Part shown: piece after piece, positions 2,779 to 49,747 of the stretch
Numbering within the stretch: the stretch's first letter is position 1
How the letters are laid out: every line of letters starts with the position of its first letter
NCBI RefSeq assembly: GCF_010120715.1
Contig: NZ_CP047591.1
Location: 2,586,303-2,650,302, forward strand
Reading direction: 5' to 3'
DNA from: Aminipila terrae
Lineage (GTDB): Bacteria; Bacillota; Clostridia; Peptostreptococcales; Anaerovoracaceae
DNA length: 64,000 bases
The notes under the pieces: model-generated
Told to the model about the DNA's origin: nothing
What the model saw: only the letters and a program-made list of their open reading frames with translations
Databases searched by the model: none
Program-made: the position numbers and the translations under genes

Positions 2779-3900
2779 ATGATGCACACAGTAGAAACAA
2801 CTTACGAATTATCAAGAGAGCAATTTGAAAAAACAAAGGATAGACTTTATGAATTTAGCACAGAAAATAAATTACGTTGTATTTCGGATGAGAAAAATCT
2901 TACATATACAAAATTTTATGAAAGGGTAGATGAAATGACACATAAAAACACCTGGGGCTTAAAATTAAAGAATGGGATGCAGATCGTTTTGGGGGAAAAT
3001 ATGTTTAAGGTAAATGGGAAGATTAGTAAAACATTTGAGTTGAATTACATAATAAATTTAGCAAAAGTAATAGGAGGAAATTATACGAATTTATATAACT
3101 CCTATACGCATGATTATGAAAAGGTTATACAGGAAATAAATAAAACATTGGAATTAGTGTCCCCAGAGTTCCCCAATATAAATAGTGTAAAAATTAGAAG
3201 AGTAGACTTTAGCTGTAATATAAAACTAAGAAAGAATCAGTTAGCAAGTTACTTGAAGATTGCCAAAAGTGGTAAATTTGCTTCTAGAATTGAAGCTACA
3301 GCAAAAGATGAAAACGAGAAAAGATATAAGCCTAAAAATAGTGTGAAAATCAGAAATCGTAAAGATGGAAGCATTAAAGTATATCTATACGATAAACGCA
3401 GCCAAATGGAAAAGAATTCTTTAGGAGATTTCAAAAATGATACCAATGCTGAAGAAATTTTACGGGTCGAAGTACAGATTAGTAATCCTAAGATTGAAAA
3501 CTTATTGAGCAAATATAAAATAGGAAATTTAGAAGAACTACTAAAAACATCTAATAGAATGGCTCTTGTAGTTTTTGAAAAATATCTTTACAAAAACTTT
3601 TGCGCTGGAAGATATTATAAATATAATGATGCTATGGAAGTTATCCAAAGAAGCCATTTCAATAAGTCGATAAAGGTAAGAATGATCAGATTTCTTGAGT
3701 GTGTTAAAAAGGGAAAGAGCATCGAAATTGGCATAGAAAAATTCAAAAGCGATGGCAACACATCACAAGATGTAAGAAGAATCAGAGAGAAATTGAAAGA
3801 TTTAAATATAAATCCATATACACTGGGGAAACGAGAAAATGTTGAGAAATTGGATAATTTGTATAGTTGCATTTTATATGCAATGACAGAAAATTTTTGA
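2779..3900 (+). CDS. Rep_trans-family replication initiator / MobT-like relaxase
   Basis: RBS aaaggag 8 nt upstream of ATG 2779. Motifs RVDFSCNIKL and VYLYDKRSQ resemble the conserved R-x-D and YDK active-site motifs of Rep_trans (rolling-circle) proteins. Divergent from the int-xis pair. Confidence 0.55.
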   Translation: MMHTVETTYELSREQFEKTKDRLYEFSTENKLRCISDEKNLTYTKFYERVDEMTHKNTWGLKLKNGMQIVLGENMFKVNGKISKTFELNYIINLAKVIGGNYTNLYNSYTHDYEKVIQEINKTLELVSPEFPNINSVKIRRVDFSCNIKLRKNQLASYLKIAKSGKFASRIEATAKDENEKRYKPKNSVKIRNRKDGSIKVYLYDKRSQMEKNSLGDFKNDTNAEEILRVEVQISNPKIENLLSKYKIGNLEELLKTSNRMALVVFEKYLYKNFCAGRYYKYNDAMEVIQRSHFNKSIKVRMIRFLECVKKGKSIEIGIEKFKSDGNTSQDVRRIREKLKDLNINPYTLGKRENVEKLDNLYSCILYAMTENF

Positions 3901-22644: not shown

Positions 22645-24373
22645 ATGATGCAGTTTTCACAAAAAAGCATAAAAGGTTTATTTGATAGTTCGGAGAAAAT
22701 GATGATAATTCCGGTTTATCAAAGAGCTTATTCCTGGGATGAAAAGGAAAGAAAAGTATTCCTAGAAGATCTAAAAGAACAACAAGCGGGTGGAAACATT
22801 TATTGCTATGGTAATTTACTTCTAGAAACAATACAAAAGATTCTGAGTACGAAATTATTGATGGGCAACAAAGACTCACTACTGTCACTATATTTGTGAG
22901 AGCTTTATTGAACGTTTTACATAGTAGATTAGATAAGGAACCTGAAATTGTAAGGCAAGTAAATTTCAAGAAAAAAGAAAAAATTTACTTTAAAGATGAT
23001 GGTGTAATTAAACTTAGGCCTGTTGATTATGATAGAGGATGCTATGATACACTAATTGTAGAAAATAAGGATGAATATAGCATTTCTACGCCATCACAAA
23101 AAAGAATGAGGGATGCAAAGGAGTATTTTACAAAAGAATTATCACTTATACAAACTAAAGAGTTAATAAAAATATTTTCAATATTAGAAGAGGCGCAGGT
23201 AAATTGTATAGAACTAGAAGGAAAAAAGGATTCTGCGTTAATGTTTGAATTACAAAATAATAGAGGGAAGGAACTCTCTGATTTAGAAAAACTGAAATCT
23301 TTTTTATGTATCAACTCTATGTAGTAAGTAATATAAAAGAAACTGACTCTAACATTGAATATGTTGCAAACAAATTCGACCCAATATATAGGCTTATAAA
23401 TGATCTTAAGGAGAATAATGAATCTGAAGATGTAAGAGAATTAACTGAGGATAGAATTTTCATGTACCATTGTTATGCATATACAGCTAAAGGTTTTGGA
23501 TATAGAAGTATTGCTGATATAGCAGATGAATACAAGAAAATAAAGTCAGATAGAGTAAAATGGATTAAAGATTTCACTGATGAGTTACATACAACCTTTT
23601 CAAACATGAAATTTTTACAAGGGATTAATAATAAATACTTAATGAAGCTTAATCAAATTGGTATGCCTTATTTTGTGTATGCATTTATAATTAAAGGTTT
23701 AAAATATTTCAAGGAAGATTCTTCAAAATTAGAGCAGCTTTTTAAGACAATGGAGATCTTAAGTTTTAGGTATAAACTTATAAACAGTAGATCGGATATT
23801 GTTAGTAAGCTATATCCAGCACTCAGAAATTTTAAAGGTAATGTTATTGAATTAAATTCAGAAATAAAAAAGACATTAAATGATAACTGGTATTGGAGCG
23901 ATGACAGAATAGAGGAATACTTAAATAGTAATATGTATGAAAACAAAATGATCAATTATGTGCTTTGGGAATATGAACATAGTATTCAACTTAAAGGTTA
24001 TGACACTAATAAAATTAAAATAGAAAAAGAGCAAATTGAACATATTTCCCCTAAAACCCCTGACGAAGGATGGATTGCGTCTGGATATGAAGTTGATAAG
24101 AATAATATGTATTCAGAGCAATTCATAGAAGACTGGTTAAATTCACTGGGAAACCTTATGCTTATTTCGGGGTCGCATAATGCATCCATTGGAAATAAAC
24201 CTTTTGCAGAAAAATTAAAAACTTATAAGAGTAATCCAGTCTTAAAACAGCAAGAAGAAATTGTGACTTTTTTGAATGAAACAAGAAAGAAACCAAAATG
24301 GGATTCTCATGCAATTGAAAAAAGGCATGAAAAAATATTGGAATTTGCGATAAATAGGTGGAGTTTTGATTAA
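22645..24373 (+). CDS. GmrSD-like type IV restriction enzyme (DUF262 nuclease/NTPase plus DUF1524 HNH-like). Split by two -1 frameshifts: an A4 run at 22835-22838 and a T6 run at 23300-23305.
   Basis: DUF262 motifs IIPVYQRAYSW and (after the shift) YEIIDGQQRLTTV. DUF1524 motif EHISPKTP...GNLMLISGSHNASIGNKPF. Each junction is repaired by adding one base. Confidence 0.75.
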
Positions 24374-25882: not shown

Positions 25883-25927
25883 CTCATAACCCGGAGGCCG
25901 TAGGTTCAAGTCCTACTCCCGCAACCA
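25883..25927 (+). other. relic of the 3' half of initiator tRNA-fMet (anticodon loop CTCATAA to CCA); attachment-site remnant
   Basis: CTCATAACCCGG AGGCC GTAGGTTCAAGTCCTAC TCCCGCA A CCA matches the bacterial tRNA-fMet 3' half (B. subtilis ...CTCATAACCCGAAGGTCGCAGGTTCAAATCCTGCCCCCGCAACCA). There is no 5' half upstream. Confidence 0.6.
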
Positions 25928-27812: not shown

Positions 27813-28812
27813 TTACATACTATAAAATGTTACACAGATGTATATTTAGGATCTGCAAACAAAATAAGACTTACAGATTACCTTGAAGCCTATGGATTAT
27901 TAGGTCATCTGTGTAGAAAAAGTATATGGGGTCAGTGCTGGTACTAGATATGAAACAAAAGATTGGGAAATAATATGAAAAAATAATATACAGCAGTTCT
28001 TTGTATATACACCACAATATATATTTCTACGGATGTGAAAAATCAAAGGGAATTTACTGTAAGTTCTTCAGTATTTAAAATCAGAAGCATTTGATTAATT
28101 TAAAAATAAGTTAGATAGTTATATCTAACTTATTTTTGTTATACAGTTTTAAATTTACTAAACCTGCTAATTAAAGCCAAGCTTTGGGAAGGTTATTGCC
28201 TTAAATATTTCTACTGATATGGAGGCCATGGACAAATTAAAAAGTAGGTGGAATGACCTAAATACGGGTATGGTATTGGTTTCAAAATATTCTCCATACA
28301 GAGCTGTAGTAACACCATTGTTAGATAATATTTAGCAGATTGCAGAGGCTGCGGAAGAGGAAGACTAAAAGATAACGGTAATCGTACCTCAGTTTCTGAC
28401 ACGTGGAACTCTGACTAGTATCTTGCACAATCATACCGGTCTATTTATTCGTGAAAGCCTTTTAAAGAAGGGAAACATCATTGTAGCCACTTATCTAGTG
28501 GGGTTTTCTATTCCATACTTAAGCAATTATCAAGAATAGGTTAAAACATCCCCAAATGACATCATTGGAACGAAATACAATCATTGATAAACATCTAAAT
28601 TTGAATGAAAACCACAAATAACCAAAAGGAATCCCGCAGGTAGTTCAGGGGTTTTTAGTTTTTGATTTGAGGGGAGAAAAATGGATTTGACTACAACAGT
28701 ACTACAACTGGAGAATATTTGTATTTATAAAAATTGCCATATATGATAATCTAAAAGTAATTATTAACGACGATGAAATGTTTATAGAAAAGAAATTTGG
28801 GGGTAATATTGC

Positions 28813-30063
28813 TTGAGTGAATTTTCAGAGCTGATTAAGAAATTTGATAAGATTAGAGACTACATGCGAGAGTTCTATGTATATGGCTTTAAATCTCGCG
28901 AGGATTATGATAAAAAGAGCCTTCGCAGTTATGATAACGAAAAACGCAGGATAGAAAGTTACCTTTCTGATTATATGTCATTTCGTCACGATGAAAATAA
29001 TAAAAATATTTTTATATCGATAGATAGTTCTGATATACCGACCAATCCTCTTTATCGTGCTTTTAAAGCTAAATCATTTACTAAAAATGATATTACTTTA
29101 AATTTTATAATTCTTGATATTCTTGATGGTGGAGAGAGACATTCTGCAAATGAGGTAGCTGATAAAATTGCAGATGAATATCTAACGTACTTTGAAAACC
29201 CAGTGATATGGGATTTATCAACGGTAAGGAACAAGCTTTCTGAATATGTTAATCTTGGAATACTACAAACGGAAAAAGATGGGAAAAGGTTACTATACTC
29301 ACTGAAAAAAACAGACATTAATTTAGATGAACTTTGCGACGCACTGGCGTTTTTCAGCGAGATCTCTCCTCTAGGAGTTGTTGGGAGTTTTTTACTTGAC
29401 AAATGCAATTATAATAATAGCATTTTATCTTTTAAGCACCATTATATTATGCATGCATTAGAAAGCGAAATTGTTTATACACTCCTTCATGCAATTCATA
29501 ATAAAGAAAAAGTGGAAATCAAAAACCATAGCCCTCGCTCTGATAGGGATATAATCCTTGAAATCATACCGCTCAAATTTCTTATAAGCGCCCAAGGAGG
29601 GAGAAGATATCTTTGTGCCTACAGTTCAAAATTTAGAGCGATTGTAGATTTCAGATTAGATTACATAATGTCTGTTAAAGTATTGGGAAAAGCAAATAAT
29701 TATACTGAGCATTACGAAAAGCTAGAACGGATACTTTCATGTACATGGAGTGCTTCCTTTGGCAATGCTAAAAGACTCGAATGGTTAAAGATGAAGCTTA
29801 GTATTCCGCATAATGAACGGTTCATTGTAAATCGCATTGAGCGTGAGGGTAGGCACGGCAAGCTTACGCAAATTGATGAAACAACATATGAATATTTTAT
29901 TGAAGTATTTGACACAATGGAAATGATGCCTTGGATCAGAACCTTTATTGGCAGGATTATTTCCATTGAGAGTAGCAATATAGAAGTAACACAGACCTTT
30001 TATTCTGATTTGGAGAAGATGTATCAATTATACAATGGAGGTGATGGGAATGCTGTTCAGTGA
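28813..30063 (+). CDS. WYL-domain transcriptional regulator (wHTH-WYL), TTG start
   Basis: WYL core GGRRYLCAYSSKFRAIVDFRLDYIMSV (R/W-Y-L ... FRLDRI-type motif). N-terminal HTH-like segment. Confidence 0.55.
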   Translation: MSEFSELIKKFDKIRDYMREFYVYGFKSREDYDKKSLRSYDNEKRRIESYLSDYMSFRHDENNKNIFISIDSSDIPTNPLYRAFKAKSFTKNDITLNFIILDILDGGERHSANEVADKIADEYLTYFENPVIWDLSTVRNKLSEYVNLGILQTEKDGKRLLYSLKKTDINLDELCDALAFFSEISPLGVVGSFLLDKCNYNNSILSFKHHYIMHALESEIVYTLLHAIHNKEKVEIKNHSPRSDRDIILEIIPLKFLISAQGGRRYLCAYSSKFRAIVDFRLDYIMSVKVLGKANNYTEHYEKLERILSCTWSASFGNAKRLEWLKMKLSIPHNERFIVNRIEREGRHGKLTQIDETTYEYFIEVFDTMEMMPWIRTFIGRIISIESSNIEVTQTFYSDLEKMYQLYNGGDGNAVQ

Positions 30064-30961
30064 AATTTATAGTGCCTACTACAATGCTGTTGCTCATCTT
30101 ATAAGCAAAGCTATTGACGGAGATCTTAATGAAAAAACGGCAAGTGATCTTATTCGAGATTCAGCATTCTCGGAAAGCTTTGTATATATTCTTAATGCAA
30201 TTAAAAATGAGGAATGGCAGGTTATAAACAAAGAGCTCAAAACTCCTATCAAACATAAACCATCTATGCCACTAACTACACTTCAGCTTAGCTTTTTAAA
30301 AGCAATCAGTCTGGATGCTAGGTTTGCACTGTTTTCAGAAGGGATTAAAGGGCTTGAAGGCATAGCACCTCTGTATGTTGACAAGGACTTTTATTACACA
30401 GACATAATTAAAGATGGTGACCCTTATGAAAGCGATGAATATAGAAAAAATTTTAAAACAGTTCTGCAGGCCTTAACGGATAAAAGAAAGCTGCTGGTTT
30501 CCTTTAAAAGTGGGAAAGGACATACACACAAGAATACATATGTGCCAAGAAAACTGGAATACTCTCAAAAGGATGATAAGTTTAGGCTGATATGCAAAGG
30601 AAATTATAAGATGGTGGTAATAAACTTAGCAAGAATTACCAACTGCCAACTAGGAGAGCACTTTGAAGAAGCTGCAATAAAACCATATAATAGAAAGAAA
30701 AGCTCAGTTGTATTGGAAATTATAGACGAACGGAATGCACTTGAACGTTCAATGCTCCATTTCGCTAACTTTGAAAAGGAAACGAAGCAAATAGAAAAAG
30801 ATATATACCAAATGAAAATTATATACAATGGGGAGGATGAAACAGAGGTCTTAATCAGGGTATTATCCTTCGGGCCGATGCTAAAAGTATTAGAGCCGAA
30901 AGCTTTTACAGATCAAATTAAACAAAGATTATCAAATCAAGAAAAGTTGCGAGTTTTATAA
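30050..30961 (+). CDS. WYL/WCX-domain regulator, paralogous partner of the upstream WYL gene
   Basis: KFRLICKGNYKMVVINLARI (WYL-like). C-terminal VLSFGPMLKVLEPKAFTDQIKQRL matches the WCX domain. Start set at ATG 30050 after ggaggtga. Confidence 0.5.
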   Translation: MLFSEIYSAYYNAVAHLISKAIDGDLNEKTASDLIRDSAFSESFVYILNAIKNEEWQVINKELKTPIKHKPSMPLTTLQLSFLKAISLDARFALFSEGIKGLEGIAPLYVDKDFYYTDIIKDGDPYESDEYRKNFKTVLQALTDKRKLLVSFKSGKGHTHKNTYVPRKLEYSQKDDKFRLICKGNYKMVVINLARITNCQLGEHFEEAAIKPYNRKKSSVVLEIIDERNALERSMLHFANFEKETKQIEKDIYQMKIIYNGEDETEVLIRVLSFGPMLKVLEPKAFTDQIKQRLSNQEKLRVL

Positions 30962-31029
30962 AGTTCGCAACTTTTTTTCCATGATAAAGGATAAATTTTC
31001 CTGTAATATTAGTTTGCAAGGTTGCTTTT

Positions 31030-31200
31030 GCGGGAAGATAAAAATATTCTTCTGCGGTGCCCGAGGTGTTACCAGAGGGTATACCAAGTAAGGCTTGCCC
31101 GAAATGCAGGTTCAATTCCTGCTCTAAGCAAAAAGCTTAGCCATGGTTTGGAAACTTCTACGTGAGTTCGAATCTCACCGGAACAAAATTGTTCTGCTAG
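31030..31200 (+). ncRNA. candidate structured RNA with two tRNA-like T-arm hairpins (GCAGG-TTCAATT-CCTGC and GTGAG-TTCGAAT-CTCAC); Y-RNA-like or tRNA-like element
   Basis: Two canonical T-stem-loops 40 nt apart without canonical acceptor stems. Flanking hairpin ctaagc-aaaaa-gcttag. The minus-strand ORF 31069-31341 translates them as ...GIEPAF..., a typical artefact of tRNA-like DNA. Confidence 0.3.
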
Positions 31201-31451
31201 CGGTTTAGTGAAGTTGTAAAATCTATTAAGAAGATAGGTTAAATGGAAAAGGAAAGTGAGCAGATTATCCGGCTGAACAACCAGCGAGCGTGACTTTGCC
31301 TTGCCGAAGAGTGGATACCGATGATGTTTATATAAGCCCAAAGCTTTGCTTCCGGTTTATATATAATACATCTTAAACTCTTTGCCGCAAAAGTAATGCG
31401 GATAATTTGCAACTACACAAAAACAAAATACCCTATATGGAGGTAAATAAT

Positions 31452-32549
31452 ATGAAAATGATAATTAATGAAAACCAAAGAGGATTGCTTTTTAAGGATG
31501 GAAAATTTCTAAAAATGCTTGTACCAGGTAAGTATACATTTTTTAATAAGCAGAAAAAGGTAGTGGTTGTAAATACTTCGGAAGAGTTTAAGCTTACGGG
31601 ATATGACTTGTCTATTTTCCTAAAGAATGAAGAGCTTGCAAAACAGCTTGCTGTTGTGGACGTAAAAGATGAAACACTTGTACTTCATTATATAAATGGT
31701 AAGTTTAGTGATTGTCTGCAAAGTGGCAAATATGCCTATTGGACAATATTTGATCAACATGAGTTTAAGGAAATTGATATTAAAAACCCAGAAGTGGATG
31801 AGAGTATTTCAAAGTTTATTTTTACGTTTATCCCAAGAAAGTATTTTTTCAAGATTGAGGTAGCTCAATATCAGAAGGCAAGACTTTATTTTGATCAAAA
31901 GTATGTCAAGCTACTTGATGAGGGTACCTATTATTTCTGGAATAATGGCACTAAAATTGAGGTTGGCTTTGCTGACACAAGACTTATGCAGATGGATATT
32001 GCGGGACAAGAAATTTTAACCCTTGATAAAGTTGCATTGAGAATCAACTTCGTCTGCCATTATAAAATTATGGACTATGTGAAAATTTACACCGAAATTG
32101 AAGATTTTGAACAGCAGATGCATGTTACCTTGCAGCTTGCTCTTCGTGAATATATAGGCAAGTACCGTTTAGATGAGATTCTTGAAAATAAAGAGCAAAT
32201 ATCAAAATTGGCATATCAAAAACTCAAAGAGAAGGAAGGAGATTATTTTATCAAGGTTGTAGACGCAGGTGTCAAGGATGTCATTCTTCCTGGAGAAATA
32301 CGTGATATAATGAATACTGTGCTTATCGCAGAGAAAAAAGCGCAGGCAAATGTAATCACAAGACGCGAGGAAGTTGCATCAACAAGAAGCTTGCTTAACA
32401 CTGCAAAGCTTATGGAAGAAAATCAAACTTTGTATAAGCTTAAAGAACTAGAATATCTTGAAAAAATATGTGAGAATGTAGGCAGTATCAGCGTAAGTGG
32501 TGGAACAGATCTACTCTCACAATTGACCAAAATACTTAGAGGTGCTTAA
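31452..32549 (+). CDS. SPFH/band-7 (slipin-like) domain protein with an N-terminal domain of unknown function
   Basis: RBS ggaggtaaa before ATG 31452. The C-terminal half matches the SPFH fold region (KVALRINF...EIRDIMNTVLIAEKKAQANVI...). Confidence 0.6.
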   Translation: MKMIINENQRGLLFKDGKFLKMLVPGKYTFFNKQKKVVVVNTSEEFKLTGYDLSIFLKNEELAKQLAVVDVKDETLVLHYINGKFSDCLQSGKYAYWTIFDQHEFKEIDIKNPEVDESISKFIFTFIPRKYFFKIEVAQYQKARLYFDQKYVKLLDEGTYYFWNNGTKIEVGFADTRLMQMDIAGQEILTLDKVALRINFVCHYKIMDYVKIYTEIEDFEQQMHVTLQLALREYIGKYRLDEILENKEQISKLAYQKLKEKEGDYFIKVVDAGVKDVILPGEIRDIMNTVLIAEKKAQANVITRREEVASTRSLLNTAKLMEENQTLYKLKELEYLEKICENVGSISVSGGTDLLSQLTKILRGA

Positions 32550-32570
32550 TGTTCAGGGGGAGAACATAGG

Positions 32571-33809
32571 ATGTTCAGCAAATCCCTCAAAAAGAAGGTG
32601 AAAATAATGTTTGAAATAAAGGGTGAATTTACTACCGCGAAAGTGTTCACAGAAAATATAGAAGAGATTGCAATTGCACAAATTAAACAGTTGTGTGATA
32701 TGGAATATACATATAAAAGTAAAGTCCGTATTATGCCGGATGTACACGCAGGTGCAGGTTGTACGATTGGTACGACCATGACCATTTTCGATAAGGTTGT
32801 ACCTAATCTTGTTGGTGTGGATATCGGCTGTGGGATGGAGACAATCCAGATTGCAGAGAAACATATTGAACTTACCAAACTGGATAAGCTGATTTATGAA
32901 AAAATACCATCTGGAATGAACATCAGGGATACTATCCATAAATACAATGATGAAATAGACTTTAATGAGCTTAAATGCAAGGATAAAGTGAATCTTGACA
33001 GGGCAACAAGAAGCATAGGTACTCTTGGCGGAGGAAATCATTTTATAGAGGTTGATAAGGATTCTGAAGGAAATTTATATGTGGTTGTTCATTCTGGCAG
33101 CCGCCATTTAGGAAATGAGGTAGCAAAACTGTATCAGGATTTAGGTTATCAAAGATTGAATGGAAATGACCAAAGAGCACTTAATAGCTTGATTGCCCAA
33201 TATAAGGCGCAAGGCAGAGAAAAGGAAATTCAGTCAGCTATAAAGGAACTTAAAAAACAAGTAATTAGCAGCATTCCTCATTCGCTTGCTTATGTCAGTG
33301 AGGATTTGTTTAATGACTATATCCATGATATGCAAATCATCCAATACTTTGCTGAGCTTAACCGCAAGGCGATGGTAAATGAAATTATAAAAGGTATGAA
33401 ACTTGAGGTGATAGATCAATTTACGACAACACACAACTACATTGATACCAATGCAATGATTTTGCGTAAGGGTGCAGTTTCTGCAAAATTAGGTGAAAAA
33501 CTTTTAATACCTATCAATATGCGTGACGGAAGTCTAATCTGTGTTGGAAAAGGTAATGAAGACTGGAATTGTTCTGCACCACACGGAGCAGGTAGACTGA
33601 TGAGCAGGACCCAGGCACGAAACACCTTTACCGTATCTGAATTTAAAAATCAGATGAAGGATATTTATACAACTTCGGTAAACAAGAATACACTTGATGA
33701 ATGCCCTATGGCATATAAAGATATGAAAGACATCGTGGATAACATTGGTCCCACTGCAGATATCATTGGAATAATAAAACCTATATATAATTTCAAGGCG
33801 GGAGAATAA
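32571..33809 (+). CDS. rtcB: RNA-splicing ligase RtcB (3'-phosphate/5'-OH RNA ligase)
   Basis: Motifs MPDVHAGAGCTIGT, GGGNHF, HNY and APHGAGR. An alternative start at ATG 32607 has a stronger RBS. Confidence 0.85.
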   Translation: MFSKSLKKKVKIMFEIKGEFTTAKVFTENIEEIAIAQIKQLCDMEYTYKSKVRIMPDVHAGAGCTIGTTMTIFDKVVPNLVGVDIGCGMETIQIAEKHIELTKLDKLIYEKIPSGMNIRDTIHKYNDEIDFNELKCKDKVNLDRATRSIGTLGGGNHFIEVDKDSEGNLYVVVHSGSRHLGNEVAKLYQDLGYQRLNGNDQRALNSLIAQYKAQGREKEIQSAIKELKKQVISSIPHSLAYVSEDLFNDYIHDMQIIQYFAELNRKAMVNEIIKGMKLEVIDQFTTTHNYIDTNAMILRKGAVSAKLGEKLLIPINMRDGSLICVGKGNEDWNCSAPHGAGRLMSRTQARNTFTVSEFKNQMKDIYTTSVNKNTLDECPMAYKDMKDIVDNIGPTADIIGIIKPIYNFKAGE

Positions 33810-34567
33810 TGAAAGAAGAAATAATAAAAAGATTAGAACAAATTGAAGAAAAAGAAAAAGTGAAAATACTGTATGCTGTTGAGTCTGGAAGTAGAGCTTG
33901 GGGATTTGCGTCACCTGACAGTGACTATGATGTACGTTTTATCTATTTAAGGCAAAAAGAGTTTTATTTGAAGTTAGAAAAAACCCGCGATGTTATTGAA
34001 GTGCCAATAAATGATATTCTTGATATCAATGGGTGGGATTTTCAAAAAGCGTTAAGACTCTTACATACTTCAAATCCTACGCTTTTTGAATGGACCAACT
34101 CACCCGTTATATACAAAACTACACGATTTTTTGAAGAATTTAAGGATCATATCAATGATTACTTTAAAGCAAAATCAGGGCTTTACCATTATCTTAATAC
34201 TGCAGCGAGTAATTACAGAGAATACTTAAAGGGGGATTTTGTAAAAGCAAAGAAGTATTTTTATGTAATAAGGCCAATTCTGGCGTGCAAGTGGATATTA
34301 AAAGAGAACACGCCACCTCCTATGCTCTTTACAGATTTGGCGGAAAGTGTACTTGATGAGGAGTTAAAGCCAGTTATTGAAAAACTTCTTGAAATGAAAA
34401 TGTCATTGCCTGAGATTGGCCAAATACCAAAGATTAATCAACTTAATCAGTATATTGAGAAGAATTTAATTCAATTAAAAGAAGAAATTGATAGTTTACT
34501 AAGAAATGATAGCAATGATTTTGAACAGCTAAATCGTATTTTTTTAGAAGCATTGGAGTTGATATAG
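33809..34567 (+). CDS. Pol-beta-superfamily nucleotidyltransferase (COG3541-like)
   Basis: GSRAWGFASPDSDYDVRF motif (hG[GS]...DxD). Confidence 0.6.
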   Translation: MKEEIIKRLEQIEEKEKVKILYAVESGSRAWGFASPDSDYDVRFIYLRQKEFYLKLEKTRDVIEVPINDILDINGWDFQKALRLLHTSNPTLFEWTNSPVIYKTTRFFEEFKDHINDYFKAKSGLYHYLNTAASNYREYLKGDFVKAKKYFYVIRPILACKWILKENTPPPMLFTDLAESVLDEELKPVIEKLLEMKMSLPEIGQIPKINQLNQYIEKNLIQLKEEIDSLLRNDSNDFEQLNRIFLEALELI

Positions 34568-34595
34568 ATATGTAATATCTGAGAGGAACATATAG

Positions 34596-35006
34596 ATGAT
34601 AAAACAGGTAATAAAGGATGCTTTTTTCTTAAATCAGAAATCAGAACCTGCTACAAAAGCTGATATGCAGGTAGTTCAGGACTTACTCGATACACTAAAT
34701 GCAAATGCGTCAGACTGTGTGGGTATGGCAGCGAACATGATAGGCGTAAGGAAAAGAATCATTGCAGTAAATATGGGGTTTTTAAATGTAACAATGATAA
34801 ATCCAGTAATTGTGAAAAAATCTGGAGAATATGAAACAGAGGAAGGCTGCTTATCCTTAATTGGAGTGAGAAAAACTACCAGATATAGAGATATTGAGGT
34901 GGAGTTTCTAAATTCTAATTGGGAGAAACAATCTAAGAAATATTCTGGATGGATTGCGCAGATTATACAGCATGAAATTGATCATTGTGATGGGATAGTG
35001 ATATAA
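34596..35006 (+). CDS. def: peptide deformylase-like protein (short, 136 aa)
   Basis: The three PDF motifs are present: GMAANMIG, EGCLS, HEIDH. Confidence 0.6.
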   Translation: MIKQVIKDAFFLNQKSEPATKADMQVVQDLLDTLNANASDCVGMAANMIGVRKRIIAVNMGFLNVTMINPVIVKKSGEYETEEGCLSLIGVRKTTRYRDIEVEFLNSNWEKQSKKYSGWIAQIIQHEIDHCDGIVI

Positions 35007-35317
35007 CGCTTCTTCATTGACAATTTGCTAGATGAAATTTTAGCAGCAGTTATGATTATGCATCCCAATATTTATTTTGAAATCATGTAAGTTACTTGAA
35101 ATTTTAATGATTACAAGCTTTTCTGTTGCCTGAAATCTTTTTTGAGAAATATAGCTGTTAATGGGCCTACGGTTGTATTCCAGATTTCTTTTGCTGTCAT
35201 AAAGGCTTCATGAGAAAAGATATTGAAAAAGCCCAGAATGATATTGTAAATGCTTCTTATTTTAATAGATGTAGTATATAATAATGGAAAATAGAAATTA
35301 TTATTTAGGAGGGTTTC

Positions 35318-35959
35318 ATGAAAATATCACTTAGAGATAAATTCCCTGAATTGCAGGTGGAAACAACTAAAGGACCTATTAATTTGCCTAATGATTATAA
35401 GGGGAAATGGTTCATATTATTTAGTCATCCAGCAGATTTTACTCCAGTTTGTACTACTGAATTTGTTTCTTTTCAAAAGAAAAAGAAGCAATTTAATGAA
35501 TTAGGAGTGGAACTAATTGGTTTGAGTGTGGATAGCTTAGAATCACATTTCAAGTGGATTGAATGGATTAAAGAAAAGATACATGTTCAAATAGAATTTC
35601 CTGTAATAGATGATGAAAACAGAAAAGTTTCTGAAACTCTTGGACTGATTCATCCTAATGAAGATGATACTGCTGCAGTAAGAGCAGTAATAATAGTTGA
35701 TCATAATGGCAAGGTAAGGACTATGCTTGAATACCCTAAAGAAATAGGCAGAAACATTGATGAAATATTGAGAACTGTAAAAGCATTAAAAATGGCATCA
35801 ATTAAAAAAGTTTTTGCTCCAGCAAATTGGCCGTGTAATGAAATCATAGGAGACAAGGTTTTGTTCCACAGAGGAGAAGGGGAAGATCCATCATTAGATG
35901 AGAAACGCGGAATATATAGTTTATCAAATTGGTTTATATATAAGAATATGGACGAATAG
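35318..35959 (+). CDS. 1-Cys peroxiredoxin (Prx6-like)
   Basis: FTPVCTTE peroxidatic-cysteine motif. Confidence 0.8.
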   Translation: MKISLRDKFPELQVETTKGPINLPNDYKGKWFILFSHPADFTPVCTTEFVSFQKKKKQFNELGVELIGLSVDSLESHFKWIEWIKEKIHVQIEFPVIDDENRKVSETLGLIHPNEDDTAAVRAVIIVDHNGKVRTMLEYPKEIGRNIDEILRTVKALKMASIKKVFAPANWPCNEIIGDKVLFHRGEGEDPSLDEKRGIYSLSNWFIYKNMDE

Positions 35960-36056
35960 AAATATTATTTGACTAAGAACTGAAAGGTAAAACTTTTGGT
36001 TCTTTTTTATAATAGTGGTTTATATCTATAGAAATCAAAAAATATAGTTCCCATAT

Positions 36057-36102
36057 CTCATAAACCCGGAGGCCGTAGGTTCAAGCCCTACTGCCGCAAC
36101 CA
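36057..36102 (+). other. second, more degenerate relic of the tRNA-fMet 3' half
   Basis: CTCATAAACCCGGAGGCCGTAGGTTCAAGCCCTACTGCCGCAACCA. No 5' half upstream. Confidence 0.5.
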
Positions 36103-36238: not shown

Positions 36239-37191
36239 ATGAAATATTTAATTACAGGTGGAAATGGCTTTATTGGGTCGCACCTTACATTAAGATTGTT
36301 AAGTAAAGGGCACGAAGTTACAGTTTTAGATAATTTCAGAACCAGTCCCCCGATAGATTAGTTAATACTGATGCAAAAGTAATTGAAGGAAGTGTTACAG
36401 ATTTTAAATTAGTAGAAAAATTAGTGCTTGAAAATGACTATATAATTCATCTTGCAGCTATAGTTGGTGTTAGATTAGCTATGGAAAATGGGATAGAAGG
36501 ACTAAAAGTAAGCTGTATGGGAACTGAAAATGTACTAAATTGCGTGGCAAAGTACAATAAAAAATTGCTGGCTGCTTCGTCTTCTGCCATATACGGGAAG
36601 ATATCTAAGACGCCAGTATCAGAGGACACAGACAGTATAGTAGGTTGCAGCGCAAAATCAAGCTGGCTATATTCCATTGCTAAACTGGCAGAAGAACATT
36701 TCTGCTTAGCGTATCACCGTGAATTAGGATGTGATGTTAAAGTATGCCGCTTTTTTAATGCAGTTGGCCCAAATCAATCTAAGAGCTATGGCATGGTCAT
36801 GCCTAATTTCATTAGTAACGCACTAAGCCACCGGACTTTACAAATATATGGTGACGGAAATCAGTCCAGGACTTTTGTCTATATTGAAGATCTTTTAGAT
36901 GGAATTGAACTAGTTATTGAAAAGGGAACTACAGGAGAAGTATATAATATTGGAGGAACAGAGGAAATAAAAATAGCAGACCTTGCGAGAAAGATTATTG
37001 ATATTACCGAATCTGGCTCTGATATAGAATTTATCCCATTTGAAAAAGTATTCGGGCCGGACTATGAAGAAACCATGCAGCGGATGCCTGATATAACAAA
37101 GCTAAAGGCACTCGGATACAATCCCCAATATACCCTTGAAAAATCAATCAGTTCTCTTATTAAGCACCTTAAATTAAGGAAGGATATATAA
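36239..37191 (+). CDS. NAD-dependent nucleoside-diphosphate-sugar epimerase/dehydratase. Split by a -1 frameshift in a C5 run at 36347-36351.
   Basis: [16 protein letters not shown] Rossmann N-terminus. YSIAK (YxxxK). Adding one C gives ...[15 protein letters not shown]... Confidence 0.7.
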
Positions 37192-49186: not shown

Positions 49187-49263
49187 GGCGGTGTAGCTTA
49201 GTTGGCTAGAGCGTCCGGTTCATACCCGGAAGGTCGGTGGTTCGAATCCACTCGCCGCTACCA
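49187..49263 (+). tRNA. tRNA-Met (CAT), elongator type
   Basis: GGCGGTGTAGC...CCGGTTCATACCCGG...GGTTCGAATCC...CGCCGCTACCA. Confidence 0.85.
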
Positions 49264-49270
49264 TTAAAAT

Positions 49271-49346
49271 GGGCGTTTAGCTCAGCTGGGAGAGCATCTG
49301 CCTTACAAGCAGAGGGTCATAGGTTCGAGCCCTATAACGCCCACCA
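49271..49346 (+). tRNA. tRNA-Val (TAC)
   Basis: GGGCGTTTAGCTCAGCTGGGAGAGC...CCTTACAAG...GGTTCGAGCCC...ACGCCCACCA. Confidence 0.85.
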
Positions 49347-49358
49347 TTTTAATAATAT

Positions 49359-49435
49359 GGCCTGGTAGTTCAGTTGGTTAGAATGCCAGCCTGTCACGCT
49401 GGAGGTCGTCGGTTCGAGCCCGATCCAGGTCGCCA
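49359..49435 (+). tRNA. tRNA-Asp (GTC)
   Basis: GGCCTGGTAGTTCAGTTGGTTAGAATGCCAGCCTGTCACGCTGG...GGTTCGAGCCC...CCAGGTCGCCA. Confidence 0.85.
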
Positions 49436-49473
49436 TTTTTATTAAAATAAAATTTAATAAAAAGCCATTATAT

Positions 49474-49550
49474 GGTGGGTATCGTCAAGTGGTTAAGACA
49501 CAGGGTTGTGGCTCCTGTATACGTGGGTTCGACTCCCACTATCCACCCCA
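49474..49550 (+). tRNA. tRNA-His (GTG) with a G-1
   Basis: G-GTGGGTATCGTCAAGTGGTTAAGAC...GGTTGTGGC...GGTTCGACTCCC...TATCCACCCCA. Confidence 0.8.
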
Positions 49551-49567
49551 TATAAAAACTTTGTTGT

Positions 49568-49642
49568 TGGGGTATCGCCAAGCGGTAAGGCAATGGATTC
49601 TGATTCCATCATGCGCAGGTTCGAATCCTGCTACCCTAGCCA
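49568..49642 (+). tRNA. tRNA-Gln (CTG)
   Basis: TGGGGTATCGCCAAGCGGTAAGGCAATGGATTCTGATTCCAT...GGTTCGAATCC...TACCCTAGCCA. Confidence 0.85.
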
Positions 49643-49672
49643 ATTTATTTGCTGGTCGTAAGGCTGGCTTGC

Positions 49673-49747
<75 letters not shown>

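Follow-up and report, generated by a model that had tools for sequence, protein, structure and literature searches.

A WYL regulator pair, a tRNA-like leader RNA and SPFH–RtcB–RlaP genes form a probable inducible RNA-repair operon in Aminipila terrae

Introduction

Bacterial RNA repair is understood almost solely via the enterobacterial RtcR-RtcBA system. Here, we analysed a locus of Aminipila terrae in which the RNA ligase gene rtcB stands downstream of two genes of the WYL type, a structured leader and a gene for an SPFH/Band-7 protein. The locus comprises seven plus-strand genes between 28.8 and 36.0 kb of a 64,000-nucleotide stretch of contig NZ_CP047591.1 (positions 2,586,303 to 2,650,302), which we call the window and in whose coordinates all positions are given. 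Judging from sequence conservation, the conserved unit is made up of the WYL1-WYL2 pair, a promoter, a structured leader RNA of about 435 nucleotides, an apparently soluble SPFH (Band-7) protein, RtcB and RlaP. The genes and features of the locus are as follows.

28813–30063, plus strand: WYL1, 416 amino acids (Pfam WYL, E = 6.6e-7; PADLOC WYL, 2e-11)
30050–30961, plus strand: WYL2, 303 amino acids, open reading frame opening at 30035 (PADLOC WYL, 4.5e-7; weak Pfam WCX match, E = 0.0097)
30942–31009, plus strand: candidate operator and promoter (conserved block, motif survey)
31016–31451, plus strand: predicted structured leader or non-coding RNA, about 435 nucleotides (nhmmer, RNAalifold, single-sequence fold)
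31452–32549, plus strand: SPFH/Band-7 ('slipin') protein, 365 amino acids (Pfam Band_7, E = 1.5e-25)
32571–33809, plus strand: RtcB RNA ligase (Pfam RtcB, E = 6.6e-63; motifs DIGCG, GGGNHF, HSGSRHLG and SAPHGAGR in the translation)
33809–34567, plus strand: RlaP (PF10127), RNA-ligase-associated Pol-beta nucleotidyltransferase (Pfam, E = 6e-91, full length)
34596–35006, plus strand: peptide deformylase, 136 amino acids (NCBIfam equivalog NF006670, 218 bits against a cutoff of 162, 136 of 136 positions)
35318–35959, plus strand: peroxiredoxin (NCBIfam NF009668)

An original prediction, made from the letters of the window, had placed these seven genes, two T-arm hairpins within the leader and two tRNA-fMet relics outside the genes, and every item of this placement was confirmed. 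In our view, the locus probably represents an RNA-repair operon that is inducible and belongs to the SPFH/Band-7-RtcB-RlaP class; it is located in an island of about 10 kb that is flanked by repeats of a tRNA-fMet 3' half. The locus supplies experimental handles in the form of a promoter/operator of about 70 bp, two candidate sensors from a class whose characterised members all bind single-stranded DNA, and a covariation-supported RNA structure new to Rfam. Two questions become testable in this way, namely which signal reports broken RNA to the cell and which role a tRNA-shaped RNA plays in repair.

Results and discussion

Recurrence in other genomes

Conservation of the arrangement was surveyed from both ends. 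A Band-7-anchored survey covered 80 loci with one genome per species, mostly from Clostridia, together with Thermoactinomycetaceae, Negativicutes and others, and a survey anchored on the WYL1 profile covered 80 loci from metagenome contigs (out of more than 580 matches), with at least 5 kb of downstream sequence in 43 of them. An RNA with a T-loop was found 270–500 nucleotides upstream of Band-7 in 76 of the 78 loci with upstream sequence. By profile search, a complete WYL pair was present in 47/80 Band-7-anchored loci, each time with the two genes side by side and in an unchanged order, and WYL2 followed WYL1 in 61 of the 62 WYL1-anchored loci with room for it. RtcB occurred in 30 of 46 WYL1-anchored loci with enough flank; among the Band-7-anchored loci, about 46 of 80 carried RtcB after Band-7 or a 30%-identical RtcB before it, and about a quarter carried RlaP. 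The original prediction had grouped the tRNA-like RNA and the WYL pair with the genes for the SPFH protein, RtcB and the nucleotidyltransferase and had called for a neighbourhood survey of rtcB homologues; our two surveys, anchored on Band-7 and on WYL1, show that the WYL/Band-7/RtcB association recurs in other genomes. Both families are large, with more than 3,800 clusters for WYL2 and more than 7,900 for Band-7, many of them from gut Clostridia. Some Lachnospiraceae loci hold the RNA and Band-7 alone among unrelated transporter genes.

Most WYL1-anchored operons lack Band-7 and begin instead with a DUF2828/DUF7788 protein of about 500 amino acids, after which come RtcB, RlaP and, in some cases, a CCA-adding enzyme. 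We take the DUF2828/DUF7788 proteins to be Ro-like. Since the WYL pair accompanies Band-7 and DUF2828 operons alike, it appears to accompany RtcB repair operons in general, whichever of the two alternative first genes they have. Examples of DUF2828/DUF7788-first operons under the same WYL pair and promoter motif are found at L087:9392-10885, L099:4461-5993 (minus strand) and L011:5933-7399; in the last of these related loci, DUF2828 and Band-7 genes occur together, and each of the two has a separate promoter copy. In the DUF2828-type leader of L099 (6060-5990, minus strand), a D-arm-like AGCTAAGTGGTTAAAGCA precedes the hairpin CGGG-TTCATAG-CCCG, which resembles a T-arm, and on account of these two elements the alternative first gene may have a separate tRNA-like RNA. 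In another relative, L009, Rfam detects the pemK RNA motif with 67 bits at 3108-3165 (minus strand), a position that precedes the WYL pair by about 2 kb.

The regulator pair

WYL1 consists of a conserved, arginine-rich N-terminal region of about 95 residues without domain assignment, a winged helix at about residues 120–165 (weak matches, E = 0.005–0.2), a WYL domain at 220–290 and a WCX-like C terminus. The WYL2 gene overlaps the end of WYL1 and starts at 30050, the NCBI-annotated start (exact database match, P0001); Pfam WCX was present in 19 of 23 members of its family. WYL1 and WYL2 thus show the order of a WYL domain followed by a WCX domain that marks the helix-turn-helix (HTH)-WYL-WCX class of PafBC, DriD, CapW and BrxR. 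Profiles were needed to relate the two proteins to each other, as BLASTP of WYL1 against WYL2 found no similarity: comparison of the family profiles with hhalign gave 95% probability and E = 3e-8 across the WYL and WCX regions, and the hidden Markov model of each family cross-matches the other. At the level of profiles, the two are distant paralogues and WYL-WCX proteins, which agrees with the paralogy claimed beforehand. Their coupling is genetic, in that they co-occur, keep a fixed order and frequently overlap.

Searches of solved structures with single protein sequences returned nothing useful; the WYL1 family profile matched PafBC chains in the PDB (7p5x and 9fnd at 1e-4, 6sj9 at 6e-3). 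For WYL2, an AlphaFold2 model was obtained with a predicted local distance difference test (pLDDT) score of 82, and its best Foldseek matches were PafBC in complex with RNA polymerase (9fnd_Y, 1.3e-8) and DriD with single-stranded DNA (8tpk/9pfq, 2e-8), followed by CapW and BrxR, the matches to these four ranging from 1e-8 to 1e-5. The N terminus of WYL2 is helical in the model and whole-chain alignments to DriD/PafBC span 300–350 columns, but TM-scores are just 0.4–0.5; N-terminal DNA-binding domains in WYL1 and WYL2 are weakly supported.

PafBC from mycobacteria and DriD from Caulobacter, the best structural matches, are of the HTH-WYL-WCX class to which WYL1 and WYL2 would belong. Both are activators switched on by single-stranded nucleic acid (PMC11804915, PMC10853764). 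As in pafB/pafC, WYL1 and WYL2 are encoded by tandem paralogous genes, and the candidate DNA site abuts the -35 position. Unlike in PafBC/DriD, identity of WYL1/WYL2 is just about 12–15%, WYL1 carries the extra N terminus of about 95 residues, and the apparent regulon is one of RNA repair instead of DNA repair.

Promoter and candidate operator

Directly at the end of WYL2, a palindrome with the arms AAAAGTTGCGA (30942–30952) and TCGCAACTTTT (30965–30975) leads into a promoter-like region. In the window, TCGCAAC (30965–30971) is followed by a run of seven T (30972–30978), a -35-like ATGATA (30981–30986) and a -10 box TAATAT (31004–31009), which would place the transcription start at about 31016–31018. 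Relative to this start, a site TCGCARC lies at about -51 to -45; the T run comes next, then GTGA or ATGA in the -35 position and finally the -10 box. The block AGTTCGCA(A/G)C-TTTTTTT-CCGTGA (AGTTCGCARC-T7-CCGTGA) was invariant in 26 aligned loci, the proteins of which are just 40–60% identical, and in these loci a TAnnAT box stands 19–20 nucleotides past the block.

A search with the strict motif gave 78 occurrences in 1.88 Mb of fetched sequence, each upstream of a Band-7, DUF2828 or RtcB repair operon. The first long open reading frame after the motif encoded DUF2828 for 32 copies, Band-7 for 25 and RtcB for 4, and for another 8 it was a spurious reading frame inside the leader preceding Band-7; a -10 box (TAnnnT) stood at the expected distance in all but one copy (77/78). 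Additional copies precede further repair genes in L006 and L011 (in the latter a DUF2828/DUF7788 gene), and in divergently arranged loci the motif is on the opposite strand. A divergent WYL lineage with 24–28% identity has a different and perfect palindrome in the corresponding position, AAAGTTTGCAAC-N8-10-GTTGCAAACTTT (also given as AAAGTTTGCAAC-N8-10-GTTGCAAACTTTTTGTC), followed by TATACT.

Because the motif is exclusive to repair operons and changes with the WYL lineage, the WYL pair probably controls these promoters, which backs the regulatory role that had been assigned to it. Direct binding of the WYL proteins to the promoter site would fit this pattern. With its -10 box and a site further upstream that is specific to the WYL lineage, the promoter resembles those of the sigma-70 type.

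The leader RNA

The intergenic region 30962–31451 (about 445 nucleotides) is conserved over its full length at the DNA level in 27 other genomes (nhmmer). The RNA within it would extend from 31016 to 31451. RNAalifold yielded 45 pairs, 32 of which show compensatory change, and the single-sequence fold of the window leader reached -127 kcal/mol (z = -3.8), which none of 100 shuffled sequences matched. This fold reproduced the hairpins of the modules, the 5' hairpins and the long 3' stem, and its centroid the structure of module B. The following elements were delineated, the two T-arm hairpins being GCAGG-TTCAATT-CCTGC (31106–31122) and GTGAG-TTCGAAT-CTCAC (31162–31178).

31030–31036 with 31050–31055, plus strand: 5' hairpin P1 (covarying pairs)
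31056–31062 with 31077–31085, inner 31065–31067 with 31071–31073, plus strand: 5' hairpin P2 (covarying pairs)
31106–31151, plus strand: tRNA-like module A, with T-arm 31106–31122, closed acceptor-like stem CTAAGC-aaaaa-GCTTAG 31124–31140 and mini D-arm CCA-TGGTT-TGG 31141–31151
31153–31215, plus strand: tRNA-like module B, circularly permuted (covariance model R2, covariation)
31292–31329 with 31364–31394, plus strand: 3' domain, a long covarying stem (RNAalifold columns 464–573, many compensatory changes)

Module B starts with the 3' strand of an anticodon stem (AACTT, 31153–31157), a variable CTAC and the T-arm (31162–31178), and continues with a closed acceptor stem CGGAACA-aaat-TGTTCTG (31179–31196), a D-arm CTA-GCGGTT-TAG (31197–31208) and the 5' strand of the anticodon stem (AAGTT, 31211–31215); in the nearest relative, ACTTTT/AAAAGT replaces AACTT/AAGTT. 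The same plan emerged from 100 T-arm sites, in which the 3' strand of an anticodon-like stem is followed by a variable stretch of 4–5 nucleotides, the T-arm, an acceptor-like stem, a D-arm with a GG loop and the 5' strand of the anticodon-like stem, whereby the acceptor-like stem of 4–8 bp is closed by a loop and lies immediately 3' of the T-arm. Among 33 full modules, 95.3% of the cells pair compared to 40–48% with slid partners, 16 of 19 pairs are changed on both sides, and none of 500 shuffles reached the observed value. For the window subtype, which belongs to a subgroup with a short D-arm (CCA-GUGGUU-UGG), a model-guided alignment gave 92.9% paired cells against 38–53% in slid controls, with compensatory change in 12 of 14 pairs. 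In this predicted structure, the modules are circularly permuted tRNA mimics with neither a free acceptor end nor an anticodon loop.

Covariance models point in the same direction. Model R1, built from the 33 modules, produced 43 strong matches in 43 loci, one in each and 300–450 nucleotides upstream of Band-7, and no other match above 30 bits in 1.06 Mb; its matches at tandem tRNA junctions at 49.2–49.7 kb of the window were discarded as the expected artefact of a permuted-tRNA model. Module B scored 47.1 bits with model R2, the seed of which included the window sequence, and module A scored 17.5 bits (E = 0.016, 31098–31153) with a model built from related loci only. The 3' stem encloses a conserved GGATACCG (31313–31320).

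Neither ARAGORN, including a relaxed threshold, nor the Rfam tRNA model RF00005 found a tRNA in 30962–31451, where Rfam at gathering threshold and at E ≤ 10 also gave no tRNA or Y-RNA but just two weak T-arm fragments of transfer-messenger RNA (tmRNA). No Rfam family matches the leader, in the window or in eight related loci. A reading of the elements as plain tRNAs was rejected, as ARAGORN assigns eight different anticodons to the relatives and the paired partners show acceptor stems closed on themselves. The leader thus has none of the marks of a transfer RNA, i.e. free acceptor ends, an anticodon loop and a call by tRNA finders.

Two further observations were made on the leader. By eye, the 5' element GCGGUGC-hairpin-GGUAUNCC (window 31056–31085) recurs in nearly all related loci and in all leader subfamilies, even where the tRNA-like modules differ. 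In addition, the loop of acceptor-like stem A, AAAAA in the window, has 7 nucleotides in relatives (L001:7673-7691, L005:4889-4903, L007, L011 and L013) and reads like an anticodon loop (CUGUCAA, CUGACAA or CUGUUAA).

Proteins of the repair operon

The start of the Band-7 protein at 31452 was confirmed by database protein P0121 (100% identity, 365 amino acids). The protein is laid out in three beta-rich repeats at about residues 1–175, an SPFH core and a long helix at about 280–343. The approximately 175 N-terminal residues have no family assignment; in the AlphaFold2 model they reach pLDDT values of 85–89 while the SPFH core is poorly modelled, and the first repeat opens with a stretch that is weakly similar to the beginning of an SPFH domain. 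Fold searches with this model gave only weak matches to stomatin, HflK and QmcA and nothing for the N-terminal repeats. No hydrophobic segment was seen in the sequence by eye, and from this inspection the protein appears to be soluble.

The rtcB gene follows 21 nucleotides downstream on the same strand. Its true start is probably the ATG at 32607; tblastn matches to RtcB begin at residues 8–13. The ends ligated by RtcB are a 5'-OH on one side and a 3'-phosphate or 2',3'-cyclic phosphate on the other. RlaP family members add one to two nucleoside monophosphates to 3'-OH ends of RNA in vitro (PMC12776372).

Comparison with known systems

A system of SPFH/Band-7, RtcB, RlaP and a tRNA-like 'b7a-tRNA' was predicted by Burroughs and Aravind in 2016, according to the passages of 10.1101/312249 and PMC12776372 that cite it. 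Compared via these citing papers, the core of our locus matches this system: Band-7 stands beside RtcB, RlaP is present, a tRNA-like RNA lies by the Band-7 gene, and the island context would fit a locus acquired by transfer. We infer from the account given in 10.1101/312249 that the leader RNA belongs to the b7a-tRNA class; set beside the b7a-tRNA as the citing passages present it, the locus has a leader of about 435 nucleotides with two permuted modules and loop-closed acceptor stems, which tRNA finders do not call. The same group proposed that WYL factors may sense cyclic-phosphate-ended RNA and regulate RNA-repair pathways (PMC9503650, citing the 2016 paper).

The view that the arrangement had not been described therefore had to be given up, as its core was predicted in 2016 and the link between WYL proteins and RNA repair is made in PMC9503650. 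Most of the functional reading in the original prediction, an RNA-repair module with WYL regulators, stands; its claim of novelty and its inclusion of the deformylase and peroxiredoxin, to which we return below, do not. Three features may go beyond the published work: the pairing of the regulators together with a defined promoter motif, the tandem and permuted build of the RNA, and the way in which Band-7 and DUF2828 alternate under one regulator. Our literature search found no experimental study of this WYL pair, RNA or SPFH protein.

The rtc locus of Pseudomonas aeruginosa, which is controlled by RtcR, contains the SPFH protein PaFlo8 and RlaP (PMC13086221, PMC12776372). Our locus resembles it and the RtcR-controlled rtcBA operons of Escherichia coli and Salmonella in that RtcB is part of a (here predicted) inducible repair operon, in Pseudomonas likewise with SPFH and RlaP. 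Unlike in these systems, none of the seven genes at 28813–35959 encodes RtcA or an RtcR-type protein (CARF domain, sigma-54 activator), which sets the locus apart from canonical Rtc systems. YrlA and other Y RNAs share with the leader a T-arm, an acceptor-like stem and a D-arm that are joined to the rest of the molecule via the position of the anticodon stem, and both kinds of RNA are encoded beside RtcB (10.1101/312249). In contrast to YrlA with its partner Rsr (Ro60), our locus has an SPFH protein as the putative partner, two tandem modules and extra conserved 5' and 3' domains; no Ro/TROVE or DUF2828 gene was found in the window locus and no Y-RNA family of Rfam matched, so that it is not counted among Y RNA/YrlA systems.

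Proposed mechanism and alternatives

How could such an operon work? We envisage that WYL1 and WYL2 form a heterodimer like that of PafB and PafC on the TCGCARC site and that single-stranded nucleic acid made by damage binds to their WYL domains, upon which the pair would activate transcription; RNA fragments are the favoured ligand, single-stranded DNA the rival one. The leader RNA would bind to an SPFH oligomer, and the resulting particle would present a tRNA-shaped handle and gather RtcB and RlaP with broken tRNA or rRNA, so that RlaP could restore lost nucleotides and RtcB could seal the break. In its full form, the proposal joins a sigma-70-type promoter activated from a site that replaces the -35 element, an uncurated RNA class of tandem permuted tRNA mimics with 5' and 3' domains, and a repair particle of this RNA with a soluble, cage-forming SPFH protein as a bacterial counterpart of Ro-Y RNA particles. 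We offer this combination tentatively, as all of its parts holding together is somewhat unlikely.

Several points weigh against the reading of the locus as such an operon. Outside the window locus, the WYL pair is missing from 18 Band-7 loci for which the 8-kb flanks were complete, many loci lack an RtcB gene next to Band-7, and an obligatory link is seen for the RNA and Band-7 only. The left arm of the palindrome (GTTGCGA, 30946–30952) falls within the last codons of WYL2 and completes a palindrome that resembles a terminator of the WYL genes, which it may in part be; since this arm is absent in several loci, the site is possibly a single half-site. Enzymatically, the 3'-OH end left by RlaP is not the 3'-phosphate that RtcB requires, and the locus encodes neither RtcA nor a kinase. 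The SPFH core is of low confidence in the protein model, and the site at which transcription starts, the two ends of the RNA and its contact with the SPFH protein are predictions. Finally, every characterised WYL factor is reported to bind single-stranded DNA and not RNA.

This last point leads to the possibility that the WYL pair senses single-stranded DNA, arising from DNA damage or phage attack, like PafBC, DriD and CapW, and that RNA repair is one output of this response. As the solved and characterised relatives bind single-stranded DNA through the WYL domain and the Salmonella rtc operon is induced in the SOS response (PMC9879122), we regard this as quite conceivable, though not as the favoured case: this lineage of WYL proteins goes specifically with RNA-repair operons, the loci examined revealed no DNA-repair gene beside the pair, and the proposal of PMC9503650 names cyclic-phosphate-ended RNA as the ligand. 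The pair might also act as a repressor in the manner of CapW or BrxR, sitting on the palindrome and being released by damage. CapW and BrxR are among the structural matches, and the perfect palindrome of the second lineage lies just upstream of the -35 region and overlaps it; however, the best matches are the activators PafBC and DriD, several loci have just one half-site, and the conserved non-consensus GTGA box at -35 beside the site is, in our own reading of 'sigma adaptation' by PafBC, what activator-dependent promoters would be expected to show. Repression is hence unlikely in our view, and activation by the WYL pair is the reading we retain.

A further alternative concerns the RNA, which could be a cis-acting leader, i.e. 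an attenuator or a T-box-like sensor of the tRNA state that controls translation of, or read-through into, Band-7-RtcB, rather than a stable partner of the SPFH protein. Its position between the promoter and the ribosome-binding site of Band-7, with no terminator-like site between, would suit such a role, as would the conserved 3' domain that stops about 55 nucleotides before the start codon. Yet it is the Band-7 gene that the RNA tracks (76/78), rather than RtcB or the promoter; in Lachnospiraceae the RNA either separates Band-7 from an RtcB gene further upstream or lies by a stand-alone Band-7 gene, DUF2828-type operons carry different leaders under the same promoter, and no alternative terminator/antiterminator pairing was seen. 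We consider cis-regulation distinctly unlikely and keep to an RNA that acts together with the SPFH protein. It is very improbable that, as in the original prediction, the deformylase and the peroxiredoxin contribute to a module for translation rescue or stress. The def gene begins 28 nucleotides after RlaP in the same orientation, is not separated from it by a terminator-like site and is probably co-transcribed here, but it belongs to an ordinary NCBIfam equivalog family, and the peroxiredoxin lies behind a 311-nucleotide gap that holds a separate TATAAT box. Both genes were absent from all 160 related loci (80 Band-7-anchored and 80 WYL1-anchored), including relatives at 87% identity. The two are bystanders, def being a lineage-specific passenger and not a conserved part of the module.

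Genomic island and neighbouring genes

The metal-binding motifs EGCLS and HEIDH of the deformylase are readable in its translation, in line with its full-length match to NF006670; in the first catalytic motif, GMAANM, Met apparently replaces the conserved Gln of G-x-G-x-A-A-x-Q in our own reading. After the peroxiredoxin gene, a terminator-like hairpin is located at 35975–36004. The island is delimited by two direct repeats.

25883–25927, plus strand: relic of the tRNA-fMet 3' half, left copy, att-like direct repeat (exact pattern match)
about 36057–36102, plus strand: relic of the tRNA-fMet 3' half, right copy (pattern match)

Both repeats read CTCATAACCCGGAGGCCGTAGGTTCAAGTCCTACTCCCGCAACCA, with a chance expectation of 0, and no complete tRNA was found at either site; the left copy marks one edge of the island of about 10 kb. 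The relic was found in none of the first 80 related loci, and the island context is therefore specific to the genome of A. terrae.

Just left of the island, the open reading frame 23306–24373 carries a GmrSD_C restriction-endonuclease domain (E = 1.6e-19) and several neighbouring reading frames have no Pfam match, so that this may be a variable or defence region. Inside the island, the approximately 1 kb upstream of WYL1 (27813–28812) has no plus-strand open reading frame of at least 60 amino acids, and a terminator-like hairpin lies at 28487–28501. Directly right of the second relic, a gene for an NAD-dependent epimerase (36241–37191) appears broken: a short reading frame from 36241 soon stops, and the frame 36424–37191 matches positions 66–240 only of the Pfam Epimerase profile. 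Further to the right, six tRNA genes (Met, Val, Asp, His, Gln and Cys) are clustered at 49187–49747.

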